Below are positions 153 through 42,520 of a stretch of 64,000 nt of DNA, piece by piece; the stretch's first letter is position 1; each line of letters starts with the position of its first letter. This DNA is from Escherichia coli (GTDB taxonomy: Bacteria; Pseudomonadota; Gammaproteobacteria; Enterobacterales; Enterobacteriaceae). Both the position numbers and the translations under genes were made by a program. The notes below the pieces were generated by a model. The model ran no database searches. It saw only the letters and a program-made list of their open reading frames with translations, and was not told the DNA's origin. The stretch lies in the NCBI RefSeq assembly GCF_002854065.1, contig NZ_CP024147.1; one strand, given 5' to 3'.

Positions 153-668
153 TTACAGCAAAAGATAACCTTCGTGGCGCAATAACCACTCTTTTCGCTG
201 AACTCCGCCTGCATATCCGGTCATGGTGCCGTTTCGGCCAATAACCCGATGGCAAGGTACGACGATGCTGATGGGATTCGATCCGTTTGCCGCACCAACG
301 GCACGCGCCGCGCCAGGGCGGCCCAATTGTTCAGCCAGTTGGCCGTAATGCATTACCTGCCCGCAGGGAATGGTGCGTAGTGTTTTCCAGACTTCGCGCT
401 GAAATGGCGTCCCCCCTGTGGCAGTGGGAAGCGTATCAATAATGCTAAGATTACCGGCAAAATAATCACGAAGCTTGTCGCTTAAACCGCCTGGGTTGGT
501 GGCAGAAATGCGCTCATAGCCTTCTTTGCGATAATGGATGTCCAGAAGCTGCACCATGCGTTCGCTGTACTCTTCCCATTCAACCGCCCGCAGACGAAAT
601 TGCTCATCGCAAATCACCCACAGTGGACCCAGTGGCGTGGCAATTTTTTCTTCAAGTAATCTCAGCAT
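153..668 (-). CDS. ogt: O6-methylguanine-DNA methyltransferase
   Basis: 171-aa ORF with the PCHRV active-site cysteine motif; sequence recognised as Ogt. Confidence 0.92.
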
Positions 669-747: not shown

Positions 748-802
748 GGTGATGCTGCCAACTTACTGATTTAGTGTATGATGGTGTTTTTGAGGTGCTC
801 CA

Positions 803-1078
803 GTGGCTTCTGTTTCTATCAGCTGTCCCTCCTGTTCAGCTACTGACGGGGTGGTGCGTAACGGCAAAAGCACTGCCGGACATCAGCGCTATCTCTGCTC
901 TCACTGCCGTAAAACATGGCAACTGCAGTTCACTTACACCGCTTCTCAACCCGGTACGCACCAGAAAATCATTGATATGGCCATGAATGGCGTTGGATGC
1001 CGGGCAACCGCCCGCATTATGGGCGTTGGCCTCAACACGATTTTCCGCCATTTAAAAAACTCAGGCCGCAGTCGGTAA
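803..1078 (+). CDS. insA: IS1 InsA (transposition inhibitor / N-terminal part of transposase)
   Basis: 91-aa [43 protein letters not shown]..., recognised as InsA. Confidence 0.93.
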
Positions 1079-1500
1079 CCTCGCGCATACAGCCGGGCAG
1101 TGACGTCATCGTCTGCGCGGAAATGGACGAACAGTGGGGATACGTCGGGGCTAAATCGCGCCAGCGCTGGCTGTTTTACGCGTATGACAGGCTCCGGAAG
1201 ACGGTTGTTGCGCACGTATTCGGTGAACGCACTATGGCGACGCTGGGGCGTCTTATGAGCCTGCTGTCACCCTTTGACGTGGTGATATGGATGACGGATG
1301 GCTGGCCGCTGTATGAATCCCGCCTGAAGGGAAAGCTGCACGTAATCAGCAAGCGATATACGCAGCGAATTGAGCGGCATAACCTGAATCTGAGGCAGCA
1401 CCTGGCACGGCTGGGACGGAAGTCGCTGTCGTTCTCAAAATCGGTGGAGCTGCATGACAAAGTCATCGGGCATTATCTGAACATAAAACACTATCAATAA
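997..1500 (+). CDS. insB: IS1 InsB reading frame (expressed as InsAB' transposase by a -1 frameshift at A6C)
   Basis: 167-aa ORF in the -1 frame relative to insA, overlapping its 3-prime end; A6C slippery motif at 1054..1060. Confidence 0.9.
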
Positions 1501-1515
1501 GTTGGAGTCATTACC

Positions 1516-1656: not shown

Positions 1657-1889
1657 TGAGATCCCATTATTTTTATCAATTTTTGTTGCTATCCGATCGC
1701 AAAAAAGCCACATCATATGATCAGATAATTCTGATAATGATAGACGCTATTTAACACTTCACACGGTTTGTATACGGAAAAGCATTTTGCTTTTTGTATT
1801 CAATTTAGACAGAATTTTATTAATCATTTCAGGGTAATGGGGTGATGAGATGTTGCGTAACAGGGCCAGAAGGCTAGACTACAAAATAA

Positions 1890-2894
<1,005 letters not shown>

Positions 2895-2940
2895 CAAAAG
2901 CAATTTTTCCGGCTATCTGTATACAAAAACGCCGCAAAGT

Positions 2941-2954
2941 TTGAGCGAAGTCAA
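2941..2954 (+). promoter_or_regulatory. FNR-type box TTGAGCGAAGTCAA upstream of FnrS
   Basis: Matches TTGAT-N4-ATCAA at 8 of 10 positions; centred about 41 bp upstream of the proposed FnrS 5-prime end, as expected for a class II FNR promoter. Confidence 0.6.
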
Positions 2955-2989
2955 TAAACTCTCTACCCATTCAGGGCAATATCTCTCTT

Positions 2990-3111
2990 GCAGGTGAATG
3001 CAACGTCAAGCGATGGGCGTTGCGCTCCATATTGTCTTACTTCCTTTTTTGAATTACTGCATAGCACAATTGATTCGTACGACGCCGACTTTGATGAGTC
3101 GGCTTTTTTTT
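2990..3111 (+). ncRNA. fnrS: FnrS small regulatory RNA (FNR-activated, Hfq-dependent)
   Basis: Sequence GCAGGTGAATGCAACGTCAAGCGATGGGCG...CTTACTTCCTTTTTTGAATTACTGCATAGC... ending in hairpin GCCGACTttgatgAGTCGGC plus T8; lies in the zntB-dbpA intergenic region, where fnrS maps in K-12. Confidence 0.8.
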
Positions 3112-3168
3112 GCCTGTTATTTATCAGCGTCTACCCTTTAAGAGTCCACCCAATGACCGGAGGGAAAT

Positions 3169-3342
3169 ATGACGACACTTATTTATTTGCAAATTCCTGT
3201 CCCTGAACCGATTCCTGGCGATCCTGTTCCAGTTCCCGATCCGATCCCTCGCCCGCAACCCATGCCTGACCCACCACCCGATGAAGAACCGATTAAATTG
3301 TCGCATCGTGAGCGTAGATCTGCGAGGATACGCGCCTGCTAA
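3169..3342 (+). CDS. Small proline-rich protein (57 aa), possibly the K-12 small protein annotated in the zntB-dbpA gap
   Basis: ATG preceded by GGAGGG; translation MTTLIYLQIPVPEPIPGDPVPVPDPIPRPQPMPDPPPDEEPIKLSHRERRSARIRAC. Below the 60-aa cutoff of the ORF track. Coding status unverified. Confidence 0.4.
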   Translation: MTTLIYLQIPVPEPIPGDPVPVPDPIPRPQPMPDPPPDEEPIKLSHRERRSARIRAC

Positions 3343-3371
3343 CTTTGCGTCGATGACCACGAGAATAGATT

Positions 3372-4745
3372 GTGACCGCTTTTTCTACCCTGAATGTTTT
3401 GCCTCCCGCCCAACTCACGAACCTTAATGAGTTGGGTTATTTAACCATGACGCCGGTGCAGGCCGCCGCGCTTCCGGCGATCCTTGCCGGAAAAGATGTT
3501 CGCGTGCAGGCGAAAACTGGCAGCGGCAAAACGGCGGCTTTTGGCCTCGGCTTGTTACAGCAAATTGATGCGTCGCTATTTCAAACCCAGGCTTTAGTGC
3601 TGTGTCCTACGCGTGAACTGGCGGATCAGGTGGCAGGTGAATTGCGTCGGCTGGCGCGTTTTCTGCCAAATACCAAAATTTTGACGTTGTGCGGTGGTCA
3701 ACCGTTCGGTATGCAGCGTGATTCGTTGCAACATGCGCCGCATATTATCGTGGCAACGCCGGGCCGTTTGCTGGATCACCTGCAAAAAGGCACGGTATCA
3801 CTGGATGCGCTGAATACTTTGGTGATGGATGAGGCCGACCGCATGCTGGATATGGGATTTAGCGATGCCATTGATGATGTCATCCGTTTTGCGCCGGCAT
3901 CTCGACAGACGCTTCTGTTTTCGGCAACCTGGCCGGAAGCCATCGCCGCAATCAGCGGACGAGTGCAACGCGATCCTTTGGCGATTGAAATTGACTCAAC
4001 AGATGCTTTGCCACCCATTGAACAACAATTTTATGAGACATCCAGTAAAGGCAAAATTCCTCTGTTGCAACAGTTATTAAGCTTGCATCAGCCATCCTCT
4101 TGCGTGGTGTTTTGCAATACCAAAAAAGATTGCCAGGCTGTCTGCGACGCGCTGAATGAAGTAGGGCAAAGTGCATTGTCATTACACGGCGATTTGGAGC
4201 AACGCGATCGCGATCAGACCCTGGTACGTTTTGCTAACGGTAGCGCCCGTGTACTGGTCGCGACTGATGTTGCTGCGCGTGGTCTGGATATTAAATCGCT
4301 TGAGCTGGTGGTGAACTTTGAGCTGGCGTGGGACCCTGAAGTTCATGTACATCGCATCGGTCGTACAGCTCGTGCAGGAAATAGCGGTCTGGCGATCAGT
4401 TTCTGTGCTCCGGAAGAAGCACAGCGGGCCAATATCATTTCTGACATGTTGCAGATAAAACTTAACTGGCAAACGCCGCCAGCTAATAGTTCCATTGTGA
4501 CGCTGGAAGCAGAAATGGCAACGTTGTGTATCGATGGCGGGAAAAAAGCCAAAATGCGCCCGGGTGATGTATTAGGTGCACTGACAGGAGATATCGGGCT
4601 TGATGGCGCAGATATAGGCAAAATCGCCGTGCATCCGGCGCATGTCTATGTCGCGGTCCGTCAGGCTGTTGCTCATAAAGCATGGAAACAGTTACAGGGC
4701 GGGAAGATTAAAGGAAAAACGTGCCGGGTGCGGTTATTAAAATAA
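3372..4745 (+). CDS. dbpA: ATP-dependent RNA helicase DbpA (DEAD-box, 23S rRNA-specific)
   Basis: 457-aa ORF with GSGKT Walker A and DEAD (VMDEADRML) motifs; GTG start. Confidence 0.93.
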   Translation: MTAFSTLNVLPPAQLTNLNELGYLTMTPVQAAALPAILAGKDVRVQAKTGSGKTAAFGLGLLQQIDASLFQTQALVLCPTRELADQVAGELRRLARFLPNTKILTLCGGQPFGMQRDSLQHAPHIIVATPGRLLDHLQKGTVSLDALNTLVMDEADRMLDMGFSDAIDDVIRFAPASRQTLLFSATWPEAIAAISGRVQRDPLAIEIDSTDALPPIEQQFYETSSKGKIPLLQQLLSLHQPSSCVVFCNTKKDCQAVCDALNEVGQSALSLHGDLEQRDRDQTLVRFANGSARVLVATDVAARGLDIKSLELVVNFELAWDPEVHVHRIGRTARAGNSGLAISFCAPEEAQRANIISDMLQIKLNWQTPPANSSIVTLEAEMATLCIDGGKKAKMRPGDVLGALTGDIGLDGADIGKIAVHPAHVYVAVRQAVAHKAWKQLQGGKIKGKTCRVRLLK

Positions 4746-4782
4746 TGAAATGTTGAATTGCCGGGTGCAAGAGTAAACATCT

Positions 4783-4866
4783 TATTCGGGATTGCCGGAT
4801 GCGACGCTGGCCGCGTCTTATCCGGCCTCCATAAGAGTAGCCCGATACGCTTGCGCATCGGGCGCT
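4783..4866. repeat. REP/BIME-type extragenic palindromic elements
   Basis: GCCGGATGCGACGC...CTTATCCGGCC and GCCCGATACGCTTGCGCATCGGGC palindromic units between the convergent dbpA and ttcA. Confidence 0.7.
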
Positions 4867-4873
4867 ATCCTGG

Positions 4874-5809
4874 TTATTTCACTTCAACCACATTCAGCCG
4901 TAACTCATCCAACTGATTTTCATCTTCTTCTGGCTGCCAGCCCGCCGGTTGTAGTGGGATCTCTTCGCGATCAAACGCCAGATCACCCCCGTTAACCACT
5001 TCAGAACCGTGGGTGATGCCTTTGAAATCGAACAGGTTGGTATCGCACAGATGCGACGGCACCACATTCTGCATCGCGCTGAACATCGTCTCGATACGCC
5101 CTGGATAACGTTTATCCCAGTCACGCAACATGTCAGCAATCACCTGACGTTGCAGGTTAGGCTGTGAACCGCACAGGTTGCACGGAATAATGGGGAACGC
5201 TTTTGCATCGGCAAATCGCTGAATATCTTTCTCGCGGCAGTAGGCCAGCGGACGAATAACGATATGTTTGCCATCATCGCTCATCAGTTTCGGAGGCATA
5301 CCTTTCATCTTGCCGCCGTAGAACATATTTAAGAACAGCGTCTGCAGGATATCGTCACGATGGTGACCCAGCGCGATCTTCGTCGCCCCCAGTTCCGTTG
5401 CGGTACGATAAAGAATACCGCGACGAAGGCGAGAACACAGTGAGCAAGTGGTTTTGCCCTCTGGAATCTTCTCTTTCACGATACCGTAAGTGTTCTCTTC
5501 AACAATCTTGTACTCAACGCCCAGCTTTTCAAGATACTCGGGCAGAACGTGCTCCGGGAAGCCCGGTTGCTTTTGATCGAGGTTAACAGCCACCAGCGAA
5601 AAATTGATTGGCGCGCTTTGCTGCAAATTGCGCAGAATCTCCAGCATGGTATAGCTGTCTTTACCCCCGGAGAGGCAAACCATGATGCGATCGCCTTCTT
5701 CAATCATATTGAAGTCAGCAATGGCTTCGCCCACGTTACGACGCAGGCGTTTTTGTAATTTGTTCAGGTTGTATTGTTCTTTCTTGCTAATTTCTTGATT
5801 TTGCGACAT
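4874..5809 (-). CDS. ttcA: tRNA 2-thiocytidine(32) synthetase TtcA
   Basis: 311-aa ORF with PP-loop SGGKDS and Cys-X-X-Cys motifs. Confidence 0.92.
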
Positions 5810-5951
5810 TTAAAAGCGACTCAATTCGTTATATGGCATCAGAAGAGTATGCGTCATGCCGGAACGCCCAGCATAAGAAATCTGATATAAAAACTGTGGC
5901 GTGTATGGTACGGATTAGAGAGGAAAATGTCAGCACATTTGCGAAATGAAT

Positions 5952-5977
5952 CAAAAAGCCCGCAGCAATGTGCGGGC
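5952..5977 (-). terminator. Rho-independent terminator downstream of uspF
   Basis: GCCCGCA/TGCGGGC hairpin followed by a U-run on the minus strand, just 3-prime of the uspF stop. Confidence 0.7.
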
Positions 5978-5984
5978 GTTAGTG

Positions 5985-6500
<516 letters not shown>

Positions 6501-6525
6501 TTAGATCAAAGGAGGAATAATAAGC

Positions 6526-6551
6526 AGAAAAAGCCCGCCATAACAGCGGGC
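6526..6551 (-). terminator. Rho-independent terminator downstream of ompN
   Basis: GCCCGC...GCGGGC hairpin followed by a U-run on the minus strand immediately after the ompN stop. Confidence 0.7.
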
Positions 6552-6559
6552 AGGAGGAT

Positions 6560-7693
6560 TTAGAACTGATAAACCAGACCTAAAGCGACAATATCATCGG
6601 TAGAGATGCCGTTGGCAGCGTAGAAACTGTCATCTTCATCCAACAGGTTGATTTTATAGTCAACATAAGTGGACATGTTTTTATTGAAATAGTAAGTCGC
6701 GCCAACATCGGCGTATTTAACCAGATCTTTATCATCAACACCTGCCGGGTTGTCTGCACCACCGGCAGCGTGCAGGTCACGGCCTTTAGACATCAGGAAA
6801 GAGACTGCCGGACGCAGACCAAAATCAAACTGGTACTGTGCAGTGACTTCAAAGTTCTGGGTTTTGTTCGCAACTGCATAATCGCTGTCGCCAAACGGGG
6901 TCATATTACGCGTTTCTGAATACATGGTTGCCAGGTAAATATTGTTAGCATCGTATTTTAGCCCAGCAGTCCACGCGTCTGCTTTATCACCACCCGCCGC
7001 AGTATGGTTAACCTGGTCATTGGTGCGGTCAGAAGAGGTGTATGCCGCACCAGCGCTAAAGCCCATGCCTAAATCATATGTTGTGGAAAGACCCCAGCCG
7101 TCACCGTTTTCATGGCGAACATCACGTCCGTTGTTGGTGCCTTCCTGACCATTACTGGCACCTTCGTTGTTACCTTGATACTGCACCGCGAAGTTCAGAC
7201 CATTTACCAGACCGAAGAAATCAGTATTACGATAAGTCGCGACGCCATTGGCACGACCAGTCATAAAGTTGTCTGCATTGGTATAAGAGTCACCGCCAAA
7301 TTCAGGCAGCATATCGGTCCAGCCTTCGATGTCGTACATTACGCCATAATTACGTCCGTAATCGAAAGAACCGTAATCTGCAAATTTCAGTCCGGCAAAT
7401 GCCAGACGGGTCCATGACTGGTTTTTTGAAGATTCAGTGTTGTTTGCCTGAATATTGTATTCCCATTGACCGTAGCCAGTAAGTTGATCGTTAATTTGGG
7501 TTTCGCCTTTAAAACCCAGACGCGCATAGCTCTGGTCGCCATCTTTCGCTGAATTATCAGAAAAATAATGCAGGCCATCAACTTTGCCATACAGATCTAA
7601 TTTGTTGCCGTCTTTATTATAAACTTCGGCTGCATGTGCAGCACCTGCGGCGATCAGGGCAGGAATTAAAAGTGCCAGTACTTTGCTTTTCAT
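6560..7693 (-). CDS. ompN: Outer membrane porin OmpN
   Basis: 377-aa ORF with signal peptide [21 protein letters not shown], porin beta-barrel features and C-terminal ...LVYQF. Confidence 0.9.
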
Positions 7694-7920
7694 TGAATAA
7701 ATCCTTTAGTTATTTTATTTGCCTTTTATCCCCATTTCGGGGAGTGAAAACATCCTAAAGGAGAAGTTCAGTTAGCCGATAAATATCATTTGTTACGCCT
7801 TAAGTAAAACCTTAATCAAATAATTCCTCTGAAATGATAATAAGTCTGGTGAATGTATCGAAGATAATACATACAAAATAAAAATTATACTTTTTATTTT
7901 CTATACGTTATTCTGCGCGG

Positions 7921-8029
7921 GTTATATGCCTTTATTGTCACAGATTTTATTTTCTGTTGGGCCATTGCATTGCCACTGATTTTCCAACATATAAAAAGAC
8001 AAGCCCGAACAGTCGTCCGGGCTTTTTTT
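7921..8029 (+). ncRNA. micC: MicC small RNA (Hfq-dependent repressor of ompC)
   Basis: Sequence GTTATATGCCTTTATTGTCACAGATTTTATTTTCTGTTGGGCC... ending in GCCCGAACAGTCGTCCGGGC plus T7; sits in the ompN-pfo intergenic region, divergent from ompN. Confidence 0.85.
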
Positions 8030-8057
8030 AGAATTGGATAATCCTTATCCAGAGCAT

Positions 8058-11000
8058 TTAATCGGTGTTGCTTTTTTCCGCTTTTCCGGCCATTTGTGCC
8101 AGGAAGTCATAGCGTTTTTGCAAATCAGCTGCAGCATCTTTCCATAACTGTTCTGCCACTTCTGGCTGCTGCGAATTCAGACGACGGAAACGTTGCTCGT
8201 GAAGTAACGTTTCTTCCAGTGCTTCTGACGGCGGGCGTGAATCCAGCGCCAGCGGCAGTTTGCCTTCATCGGCACGACGCGGATCGAAGCGATATAGCGG
8301 CCAGAAGCCGGTAGCTGTGAGTTGGCGCATCTGGTCATGGCTGAGTGCCAGATCGTAACCATGCTCTTCACACGGGCTATAAGCAATGATCAGCGATGGT
8401 CCCGGATACGCTTCCGCTTCCTGAATCGCTTTCACCGTCTGGTTCAGTTGCGCGCCGAGAGAAATCTGCGCCACATAAACATGACCGTACATCATCATAC
8501 TGACGCCAAGATCTTTACGCGCTTTACGTTTGCCGTGCTCGCCAAATTTAGTTACTGCACCCAGCGGTGTCGCTTTCGACGCCTGACCACCGGTGTTGGA
8601 ATAGCATTGCGTATCCAGCACCAGAATGTTGACGTTTTCCGTCAAACTCAATACATGATCCAGACCGCCAAAGCCGATATCGTAAGCCCAGCCGTCGCCA
8701 CCAATCAGCCAGATTGATTTTTCTACCAGTGCATCTGCGTCACGCAGCAGTTCATGTGCTTCGGCAACATCGTTGAGTTGCTGGCGTAAAGCTGCGACCT
8801 GTTCTCGACGAACCTCTGGCGTAGCGTCTGATTTCAACGCCGTCAGTAATTCCGCCGGGATTTTATCGGCAAATTGATCCAGCAGACGCAGCACGCGGAC
8901 ACGGTGTTGATCGACCGTCAGGCGGAAACCAAGGCCAAATTCGGCATTATCTTCAAATAGAGAGTTCGCCCATGCCGGCCCACGACCGTTGGCATCGGTG
9001 GTATACGGTGTAGAGGGCAGGTTACCGCCATAAATTGAAGAACAGCCGGTGGCGTTAGCGATCAACATCCGGTCGCCATAGAGCTGAGTCAGCAATTTAA
9101 TATACGGCGTCTCGCCACAACCGGAGCAAGCACCGGAATATTCAAACAGCGGTGTAATCAGCTGCGATGTACGAATATCAATACGTTCCAGTTTGCTACG
9201 GTCTATTTCTGGCAGGTTGAGGAAGAAATCGTAATTGATTTTCTCTTCTTCGACATGTTCCAGGCGAGACATCATATTGATGGCTTTAATCTCTGGATTC
9301 TGACGGTCTTTCGCCGGGCAAACTTCGACGCACAGGTTACAACCGGTGCAATCTTCCGGTGCCACCTGCAAGACATATTTCTGCCCGCGCATATCACGCG
9401 ATTTCACATCCAGCGAATGCAGGCTGGCAGGGGCGTTTTCCATCGCTTCAGGCGGCACCACTTTTGCGCGAATAGCTGAGTGTGGGCAAGCGGCAACGCA
9501 GTGGTTACATTGGGTACAGAGTTCCTCTTTCCAGATGGGGATCTCTTCGGCGATATTGCGTTTTTCCCAGCGTGTAGTGCCCATCGGCCAGGTGCCGTCT
9601 GGCGGCAGCGCCGAAACGGGGAGGGCATCACCAAGCCCGGCGAGCATCGCAGCGGTTACGGTTTTCACGAAATCAGGGGCGGCATCGGAAACCACTGGCG
9701 GTCGATTGGCGCTGTGCGGATTTACCGGTTGCAACGGAACTTCTTCTACGGATTCACGCGCCAGCGCCAGAGCCTGCCAGTTGCGCTCCACCAGATCCTG
9801 GCCTTTGCTACTGTAACTTTTGGCAATCGCACCCTGCAATTCTGCGAGGGCGCTATCGCCAGGCAGAATTTGCGTCAGATGGAAAAAAGCCATCTGCATG
9901 ACGGTATTAATACGGGCCGCCAGGCCACATTCGCGGGCGATTTTCGCTGCGTTAATCACATAGAAGCACGCTTTTTTCTGGTTTAACACGGCCTGAACTT
10001 CTTGCGGCAAGCGCGACCACACTTCATCTGCGCTGTACGGCGTGTTGAGCAGGAAAATGCCGCCAGGTTTTAAACGCTCAGCCATCTGATATTTATCGAT
10101 AAACTGCAACTGGTGGCAGCCAACAAAATCAGCCTGGGAAATGAGATAAGCGGAACGAATCGGCTGTTCGCTCACTCGAAGGTGAGAAACCGTCAGACCG
10201 CCCGCCTTTTTGGAGTCGTAAACAAAATAGCCCTGTGCGTACCACGGCGTGGAATTACCGATAATCTTGATATTGTTTTTGGTCGCGGAAACGCTGCCAT
10301 CACTACCAAGGCCATAAAACAAGGCTTCCAGTTTCGCCGAGTTTGGCAGGGTGTTTTCCGGCAACGGCAGTGACAGATTGGTCACATCATCGTAAATACC
10401 AACCGTAAAGCGCGCTTTCGGTTTAGCCGCGTTGAGCTCGGCAAATACCGCCAGTACACAGTCCGGGCCAAATTCTTTGGATGAAAGACCATAGCGCCCA
10501 CCAATGACACGGGGCAGAGTTTCGCGCTCGCCATTATTAAAGGCTTCTGCCAGTGCGGTCATTACATCCAGATAGAGCGGTTCTGCCTGGGCACCGGGTT
10601 CTTTGGTTCTGTCCAGTACCGCTACGCTGCGTACGGATCCCGGCAGAGCTTGCAGCAAGTGTTTGGCGGAGAAGGGACGGTACAGGCGAACTTTCAGCAC
10701 GCCAACTTTTTCGCCACGGGTTAGCAATTCATCAACCACTTCTTCACAGGTGCCAATGGCAGAGCCCATCAGGATAATCACCCGTTCCGCTTGCGGATGC
10801 CCGTAATATTCAAACGGCTGATACTGACGACCTGTCGCGGCAGAGAAATCATTCATCGCCTGTTCAACATGGTCATAGACCGCGTTGTACCATGGGTTGG
10901 TGGCTTCGCGAGACTGGAAATAAGTGTCAGGATTGGCGGACGTACCGCGGATCACCGGATGTTCCGGGTTGAGCGCCCGGGCGCGATGAGCATCAATTTC

Positions 11001-41492: not shown

Positions 41493-41557
41493 AAAGAAAA
41501 CGCCTGTACTAAAACCGACCCGTGGTACAGGCGAAGAATACGGGTCTACATCGGAAG
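41493..41557 (-). ncRNA. rydC: RydC small RNA (Hfq-binding)
   Basis: Minus strand reads CTTCCGATGTAGACCCGTATTCTTCGCCTGTACCACGGGTCGGTTTTAGTACAGGCGTTTTCTTT, recalled as RydC with its pseudoknot-forming repeats; lies between cybB and ydcA. Confidence 0.75.
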
Positions 41558-41972: not shown

Positions 41973-42122
<150 letters not shown>

Positions 42123-42520
42123 AGCCTTTCTCCTTGCCGGATGGCGGGTAAGAGGCTAACATCTGAATTGCTTGGTTCATTCGTTGGCCTCGGTTGATAG
42201 AAATATCGGTCGGGGCCTTCGTCTTTCTGATTCCCGGTTAGCCTGAAAACAGAAAGTCTCAGGCACCCGTGAGCATCCTATGTGGTTTCCTTAGGGACGA
42301 AAATAATCACCTGACGAAATTGCGTGCTGTTTTCCAGAATTTTTCGTCATTCGGGTTAGCCAGTTTAACCATTCGTTACTCTCTTCATTCCAATGGCATT
42401 AATCTTCTCTGCAATAATTGTTGTAAAAATGTGACGCAAAGAGGCTTTTAGTCGTAAGTAATTACCGTCAAATGCCGATGACTATCTATCAGGAGTAAAC
42501 CTGGACGAGAGACAACGGTA

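Follow-up and report, generated by a model that had tools for sequence, protein, structure and literature searches.

The fnrS locus and its upstream FNR box in the zntB-dbpA interval of an Escherichia coli genome

Genes of the interval and identity of the small RNA

We studied the interval between zntB and dbpA in a stretch of Escherichia coli DNA of 64,000 nucleotides, the whole of which is referred to here as the window. Read in the direction of the positive strand, the region contains zntB (1911..2894, positive strand), an FNR-binding site (2941..2954), the gene for a small RNA of 122 nt (2990..3111, positive strand), the small-protein gene ynaL (3169..3342, positive strand) and dbpA (3372..4745); the names zntB and dbpA were taken from the RefSeq annotation of matching E. 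coli genomes. A preliminary description of the sequence had placed a 122-nt RNA matching FnrS in the zntB-dbpA gap. Both the place and the identification held (see below), and to the contents of the gap we add ynaL, which had gone unmentioned. On the combined evidence, none of which contradicts this reading, the segment 2941..3111 is almost certainly the fnrS locus, i.e., an FNR-activated promoter followed by the gene for a 122-nt, Hfq-assisted sRNA that pairs with target mRNAs.

A scan of the whole window with Rfam 15 gave a match of the FnrS family (RF01796) to 2990..3107 in the positive strand. The match covered model positions 1-119 of 119 and scored 134.8 bits (gathering score 60; E = 4.4e-24), which is far beyond chance; the Rfam hit that the preliminary description had anticipated was thus obtained over the full length of the model. 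A permissive local Rfam scan of both strands returned no credible match besides FnrS. The DUF2815 RNA, aligned to 3028..3137 in the negative strand with 19.4 bits (gathering score 41.2; E = 0.79), was discarded as a chance match.

In the curated MG1655 record, K-12 fnrS (b4699) is an ncRNA of 122 nt located at 1409129..1409250 of NC_000913.3, between zntB and ynaL. Alignment of positions 2895..3371 of the window with the K-12 sequence showed that all 122 nucleotides of the RNA were identical (122/122), as was the promoter from -74 to +1. Three single-base differences were present in the aligned interval: at 2915, upstream of the FNR box; at 3159, between the terminator and ynaL; and at 3234, a synonymous change within ynaL. 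Because the RNA and the promoter are identical, the experiments performed on K-12 FnrS apply to the window sequence, and we infer from the same identity that transcription of the RNA would be FNR-dependent in the window strain. FnrS in the window is therefore an already known, well-characterised sRNA found in its normal place, with no new biology in the element itself.

The region is widespread in the species: positions 2850..3400 matched, at an identity of at least 95%, in 5392 of 5426 complete E. coli genomes. The remaining 34 genomes gave no match and, separately, 6 of the 5393 matching places were on records labelled as plasmids. Deletions or mislabelling of replicons could account for these unmatched genomes and plasmid-labelled records.

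The RefSeq (PGAP) annotation of the region in strain CUWW06, whose sequence was 99.99% identical to the window over 1775..9000, includes zntB, ynaL and dbpA and lacks fnrS, and no fnrS feature was annotated under the match in any of the best 12 matching strains. These records bear out the earlier remark that FnrS is missed by ORF-based annotation. Since FnrS was absent from the RefSeq annotations checked, its recovery from the raw sequence indicates that the scan was working correctly, and it counts as a fair annotation catch rather than a discovery. The significance of the finding is confined to this annotation point; within the FNR anaerobic regulon, FnrS itself is a central arm of post-transcriptional control.

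The FNR box and the fnrS promoter

For comparison, one genome per species was scanned with a degenerate pattern that described the 5' stem-loop of FnrS, which gave 120 loci in Enterobacterales; since several positions of the 5' stem were set by this pattern, the invariance there is in part built in. The upstream regions were aligned without gaps on the RNA 5' end (117 distinct sequences), and the RNA alignment and consensus fold comprised 109 distinct homologs. Counts of start and stop codons, lengths and terminators refer to 115 homologs, with the search for stops limited to 260 nt.

The FNR-binding site, TTGAGCGAAGTCAA, was located at 2941..2954 in the positive strand. Of the 14 positions of this palindromic sequence, 12 agree with the consensus TTGAT-N4-ATCAA, and the two mismatches leave the TTGA and TCAA cores intact. 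Counted from the annotated FnrS 5' end (2990), the box has its centre at -42.5, and the textbook class II site has its centre at -41.5; with this refinement, the upstream FNR box was correctly assigned to the class II position in the preliminary description. The arrangement found here, an inverted repeat close to -41.5 that overlaps the -35 position, is that of a class II FNR-activated promoter. It also matches the K-12 data: fnrS has an FNR ChIP-seq peak with one site at -42.5, a position published for both fnrS and ydhY, and sigma-70 occupancy at the gene is higher without O2 (Myers et al. 2013, PMC3688515).

A search of the window with the box pattern (TTGAT-N4-ATCAA, up to two mismatches) found 47 matches against 37.4 +/- 5.4 expected from shuffled sequences, a difference that is not significant, and the pattern count was not used as evidence by itself. 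What makes the box significant is that its position is fixed and that it is conserved across species, not how often the pattern occurs. Among the 117 distinct Enterobacterales homologs, the TTGA and TCAA cores were 93-100% conserved, with columns -48, -47 and -39 to -36 reaching 98-100%, and the motif [TC]TGA-N6-TCAA occurred in the same register in 106. No indel was observed between the FNR box and +1 in this set; two of the 117 homologs had the box at -41.5.

Downstream of the box, the spacer columns from -30 to -18 were unconserved and carried almost no information, and G-14, C-13, A-12 and T-8 were 97-98% conserved across the same homologs. From these conserved columns we assigned a probable -10 hexamer, CAATAT, at 2977..2982 in the positive strand (-13 to -8). 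A search of 2700..3500 found no sigma-70 consensus promoter, and a -35 element was not recognisable at the fnrS promoter because the FNR box overlaps the -35 position. The absence of a sigma-70 consensus is in keeping with an activator-dependent promoter of class II, where the site of the activator takes the place of the -35 element.

Note that an A-tract at 2925..2929 (-65 to -61), just upstream of the FNR box, was also conserved across Enterobacterales: the frequency of A at -64 to -61 was 73-93% in the 117 homologs, with 93% at -62. At class II promoters this position is the docking place of the C-terminal domain of the RNA polymerase alpha subunit. The tract could alternatively belong to the site of a second regulator.

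Structure of the RNA, its origin and its neighbours

The RNA begins with a 5' stem-loop at 2990..3036 in the positive strand (nt 1-47; -14.7 kcal/mol) and ends with an intrinsic terminator at 3084..3111 in the same strand, formed by a hairpin (3084..3103) and an eight-U tail (3104..3111). The stem of the terminator has 8 bp, five of them G-C pairs, and a folding energy of -12.4 kcal/mol. RNA lengths in the homologs clustered at 120-123 nt, and a hairpin followed by a T run ended the RNA in 114 of 115 of them. In the consensus fold of 109 homologs, 6 of the 21 consensus pairs showed compensatory changes and two helices were supported. In the 5' stem-loop these changes affected alignment pairs 10-35, 11-34 and 18-27; in the terminator, the pair of columns 106-124 was A-U in 49 sequences and G-C in 49, and that of columns 107-123 was C-G in 78 and U-A in 26. 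The strong intrinsic terminator recognised in the initial reading, a hairpin with eight T, is thus both conserved and covarying. Folding of the single sequence was set aside as evidence, with z = -1.67 and 14 of 200 shuffles folding as well, and covariation was used instead. By analogy with other Hfq-dependent sRNAs, the terminator is likely to be the Hfq-binding 3' module as well.

Two other terminator-like sites were rejected. The one at 3015..3027 (positive strand) is part of the FnrS 5' stem-loop, and the one at 2979..2963 (negative strand) lies in the unconserved promoter spacer, where there is no gene to terminate.

The promoter data bear on the origin of the RNA, which might instead be a processing product of the zntB mRNA, released from its 3' UTR, and have no promoter of its own, the FNR-like box then being a chance match. 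In 117 homologs the distances of the box and the -10 from the conserved 5' end are constant, with no gaps, although the columns on either side vary, and at the fnrS promoter an FNR ChIP-seq peak and an occupancy by sigma-70 that depends on O2 have been published (PMC3688515). Processing from zntB therefore appears very improbable, even though the box pattern alone occurs at chance frequency, no terminator-like site separates the zntB stop (2894) from FnrS (2895..2989) or from its terminator, and zntB lies just upstream in the same strand in the window and in 84 of the 91 loci for which enough sequence was available. Additional, longer RNAs may arise by read-through from zntB, which does not replace the fnrS promoter. 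Transcripts of zntB probably terminate at the end of FnrS and would in that case contain the FnrS sequence in their 3' UTR, an arrangement with which the tight synteny of the two genes (84/91) is consistent. FnrS tracks zntB rather than dbpA, which followed FnrS in 26 of 84 loci.

A coding role of the region was weighed against the same set of homologs. Two six-frame ORFs in the positive strand overlap the RNA, one of 72 aa with a TTG start (2988..3206) and one of 47 aa with an ATG start (2998..3141), and if either encoded a small protein, the RNA would be an mRNA or a dual-function sRNA. The TTG of the longer ORF was present in 13 of 115 homologs, 95 having TCG or CCG instead, and the distance to the first stop in its frame varied between 14 codons and more than the 260 nt examined; in the frame of the shorter ORF it varied between 3 codons and more than the same limit, and indels occur within the RNA across homologs. 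The ATG at 2998 was kept in 109 of 115 homologs with AGGUGA before it; however, it sits inside the conserved 5' stem, and the Shine-Dalgarno-like AGGUGA abuts it without spacing. Given that this ATG is in a conserved stem and that the frame lengths vary, the conservation is explained by the RNA and not by a peptide, so that a protein product of either frame seems extremely improbable. The ORF 2988..3206, which overlaps the start of ynaL in another frame, had been considered probably non-coding from the outset, and its rare start codon and unconserved length agree with that judgement.

The gene ynaL (3169..3342, positive strand), which encodes a proline-rich small protein of 57 aa (MTTLIYLQIPVPEPIPGDPVPVPDPIPRPQPMPDPPPDEEP...), is separated by 57 nt from the FnrS terminator upstream and by 29 nt from dbpA downstream. 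Its translation in the window is identical to the published YnaL sequence; the protein, listed between fnrS and dbpA, was detected in K-12 by epitope tagging, and ynaL and dbpA were suggested to form an operon (PMC6001520). The long proline run of YnaL suggests slow translation that would depend on elongation factor P. Among the homologous loci, ynaL was restricted to 13 from the closer relatives of E. coli, and these relatives are also the only ones in which dbpA and ynaL come after FnrS. No consensus promoter was found between the FnrS terminator and ynaL. Transcription from the fnrS promoter might partly read through the terminator into ynaL and then dbpA, in which case YnaL and the RNA helicase DbpA would be coupled to anaerobiosis; we regard this read-through as unlikely, as the strength of the FnrS terminator counts against it.

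Target pairing, related systems and wider context

A C/U-rich stretch, AUAUUGUCUUACUUCCUUUUUUG, at 3029..3051 in the positive strand (nt 40-62 of the RNA) is conserved and mostly single-stranded, and was predicted to be the target-pairing (seed) region. In the homolog alignment, T43, T44, G45 and T46 were invariant and T48, T49, A50, T52 and T53 were at least 90% conserved. The predicted folds left nt 48-62 unpaired and placed nt 40-47 at the base of the 5' stem-loop.

We co-folded the FnrS of the window with positions -45..+21 of K-12 sodB. The gain was -23.6 kcal/mol, against -6.9 +/- 2.8 kcal/mol for shuffled targets, and none of 300 shuffles reached it. In the predicted complex, nt 40-62 of FnrS cover sodB -18..+4, where both the Shine-Dalgarno sequence and the AUG are located, nt 1-8 are paired to +13..+20 of sodB, and both FnrS hairpins are kept. 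The duplex of the 20-nt linker by itself with sodB (-10.2 kcal/mol) was not significant, as 76 of 500 shuffles were as good. A duplex of full-length FnrS with sodB (-50.2 kcal/mol) was discarded in favour of the cofold; it is unrealistic because it ignores intramolecular structure. The pairing prediction supports, without proving, an occlusion of the sodB ribosome-binding site.

Two reports (PMC11572966; PMC3688515) present FnrS as an FNR-controlled RNA that is expressed on the switch to anaerobic growth and represses genes not needed without oxygen. In the first, FnrS pairs directly with the iscR 5'-UTR and represses the gene, with Hfq improving the pairing (PMC11572966), and the second attributes to FnrS eleven operons of the indirect FNR regulon, sodB included (PMC3688515).

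Taken with the features described above, these data suggest the following course of events for the window. Under anaerobiosis, the oxygen-sensing activator FNR would bind the box at 2941..2954, centred at -42.5, and the bound FNR would recruit RNA polymerase to the promoter, which contains a -10 (about 2977..2982) and lacks a -35. Transcription would run from 2990 to the intrinsic terminator at 3084..3111 and yield the 122-nt RNA. Together with the chaperone Hfq, FnrS would then pair with the translation-initiation regions of mRNAs that are unneeded without oxygen, e.g., those of sodB and iscR. The pairing, through the C/U-rich single-stranded stretch and the 5' end, would block ribosome binding and lower mRNA levels. 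FNR occupancy, anaerobic induction, Hfq dependence and target repression are drawn from the K-12 literature and, by identity of sequence, would extend to the window strain.

K-12 FnrS (b4699, RF01796) shares with the window the same 122 nt, promoter, FNR box and terminator and the flanking genes zntB, ynaL and dbpA, with no difference within the element. The homologs in Yersinia, Serratia, Pantoea, Erwinia, Photorhabdus, Edwardsiella and other Enterobacterales have in common with it the 5' stem-loop, the C/U-rich linker, the terminator, the box at -42.5 and the place downstream of zntB, whereas the second hairpin and the length of the linker vary. In Pantoea and Erwinia the left half-site of the box is CTGAT, as compared with TTGAG in the window. 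The Hfq sRNAs RyhB (iron starvation) and OxyS (oxidative stress), which likewise shut off unneeded mRNAs, follow the same logic, in which a stress- or condition-sensing regulator controls one sRNA that represses many mRNAs by pairing at the ribosome-binding site; their sequences, however, are unrelated to FnrS and their regulators are different, so that they are not members of the family. RyhB and FnrS have targets in common in the Fe-S and rseA networks (PMC11572966).

The wider context of the locus differs from that of K-12. An IS1 copy of 768 bp was present at 748..1515, 100% identical to an IS1B-family element annotated in CUWW06. To its left are ogt (153..668, negative strand) and a short remnant of abgT, and to its right the match with K-12 starts within the 5' portion of dgcM and continues from there. 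The region of K-12 from abgT to dgcM is thus missing from the window, and this IS1-associated deletion upstream of the locus puts ogt within about 1.2 kb of zntB. The insertion point of the IS1 is about 250 bp different from that in CUWW06. Because the abgT-to-dgcM region is missing, the distance between fnrS and fnr, a gene immediately beyond the edge of the window, would be only some 3 kb.

On the other side of the locus, ttcA, uspF and ompN are contiguous (about 4870..7700), as in CUWW06. In K-12 the Rac prophage is adjacent to ttcA; the window strain appears to lack this prophage, and as a result the MicC sRNA is only 5 kb from FnrS. MicC (RF00121) was found at 7918..8038 in the positive strand, between ompN and nifJ/ydbK, with 125.4 bits against a gathering score of 90. 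Two further RNAs were matched in the negative strand: the RydC sRNA (RF00505) at 41494..41557, with 92.5 bits against 48, and the sok antitoxin RNA of a hok/sok-type toxin-antitoxin locus (RF01794) at 42117..42268, with 111.5 bits against 59. The RydC and sok RNAs are about 600 bp apart.
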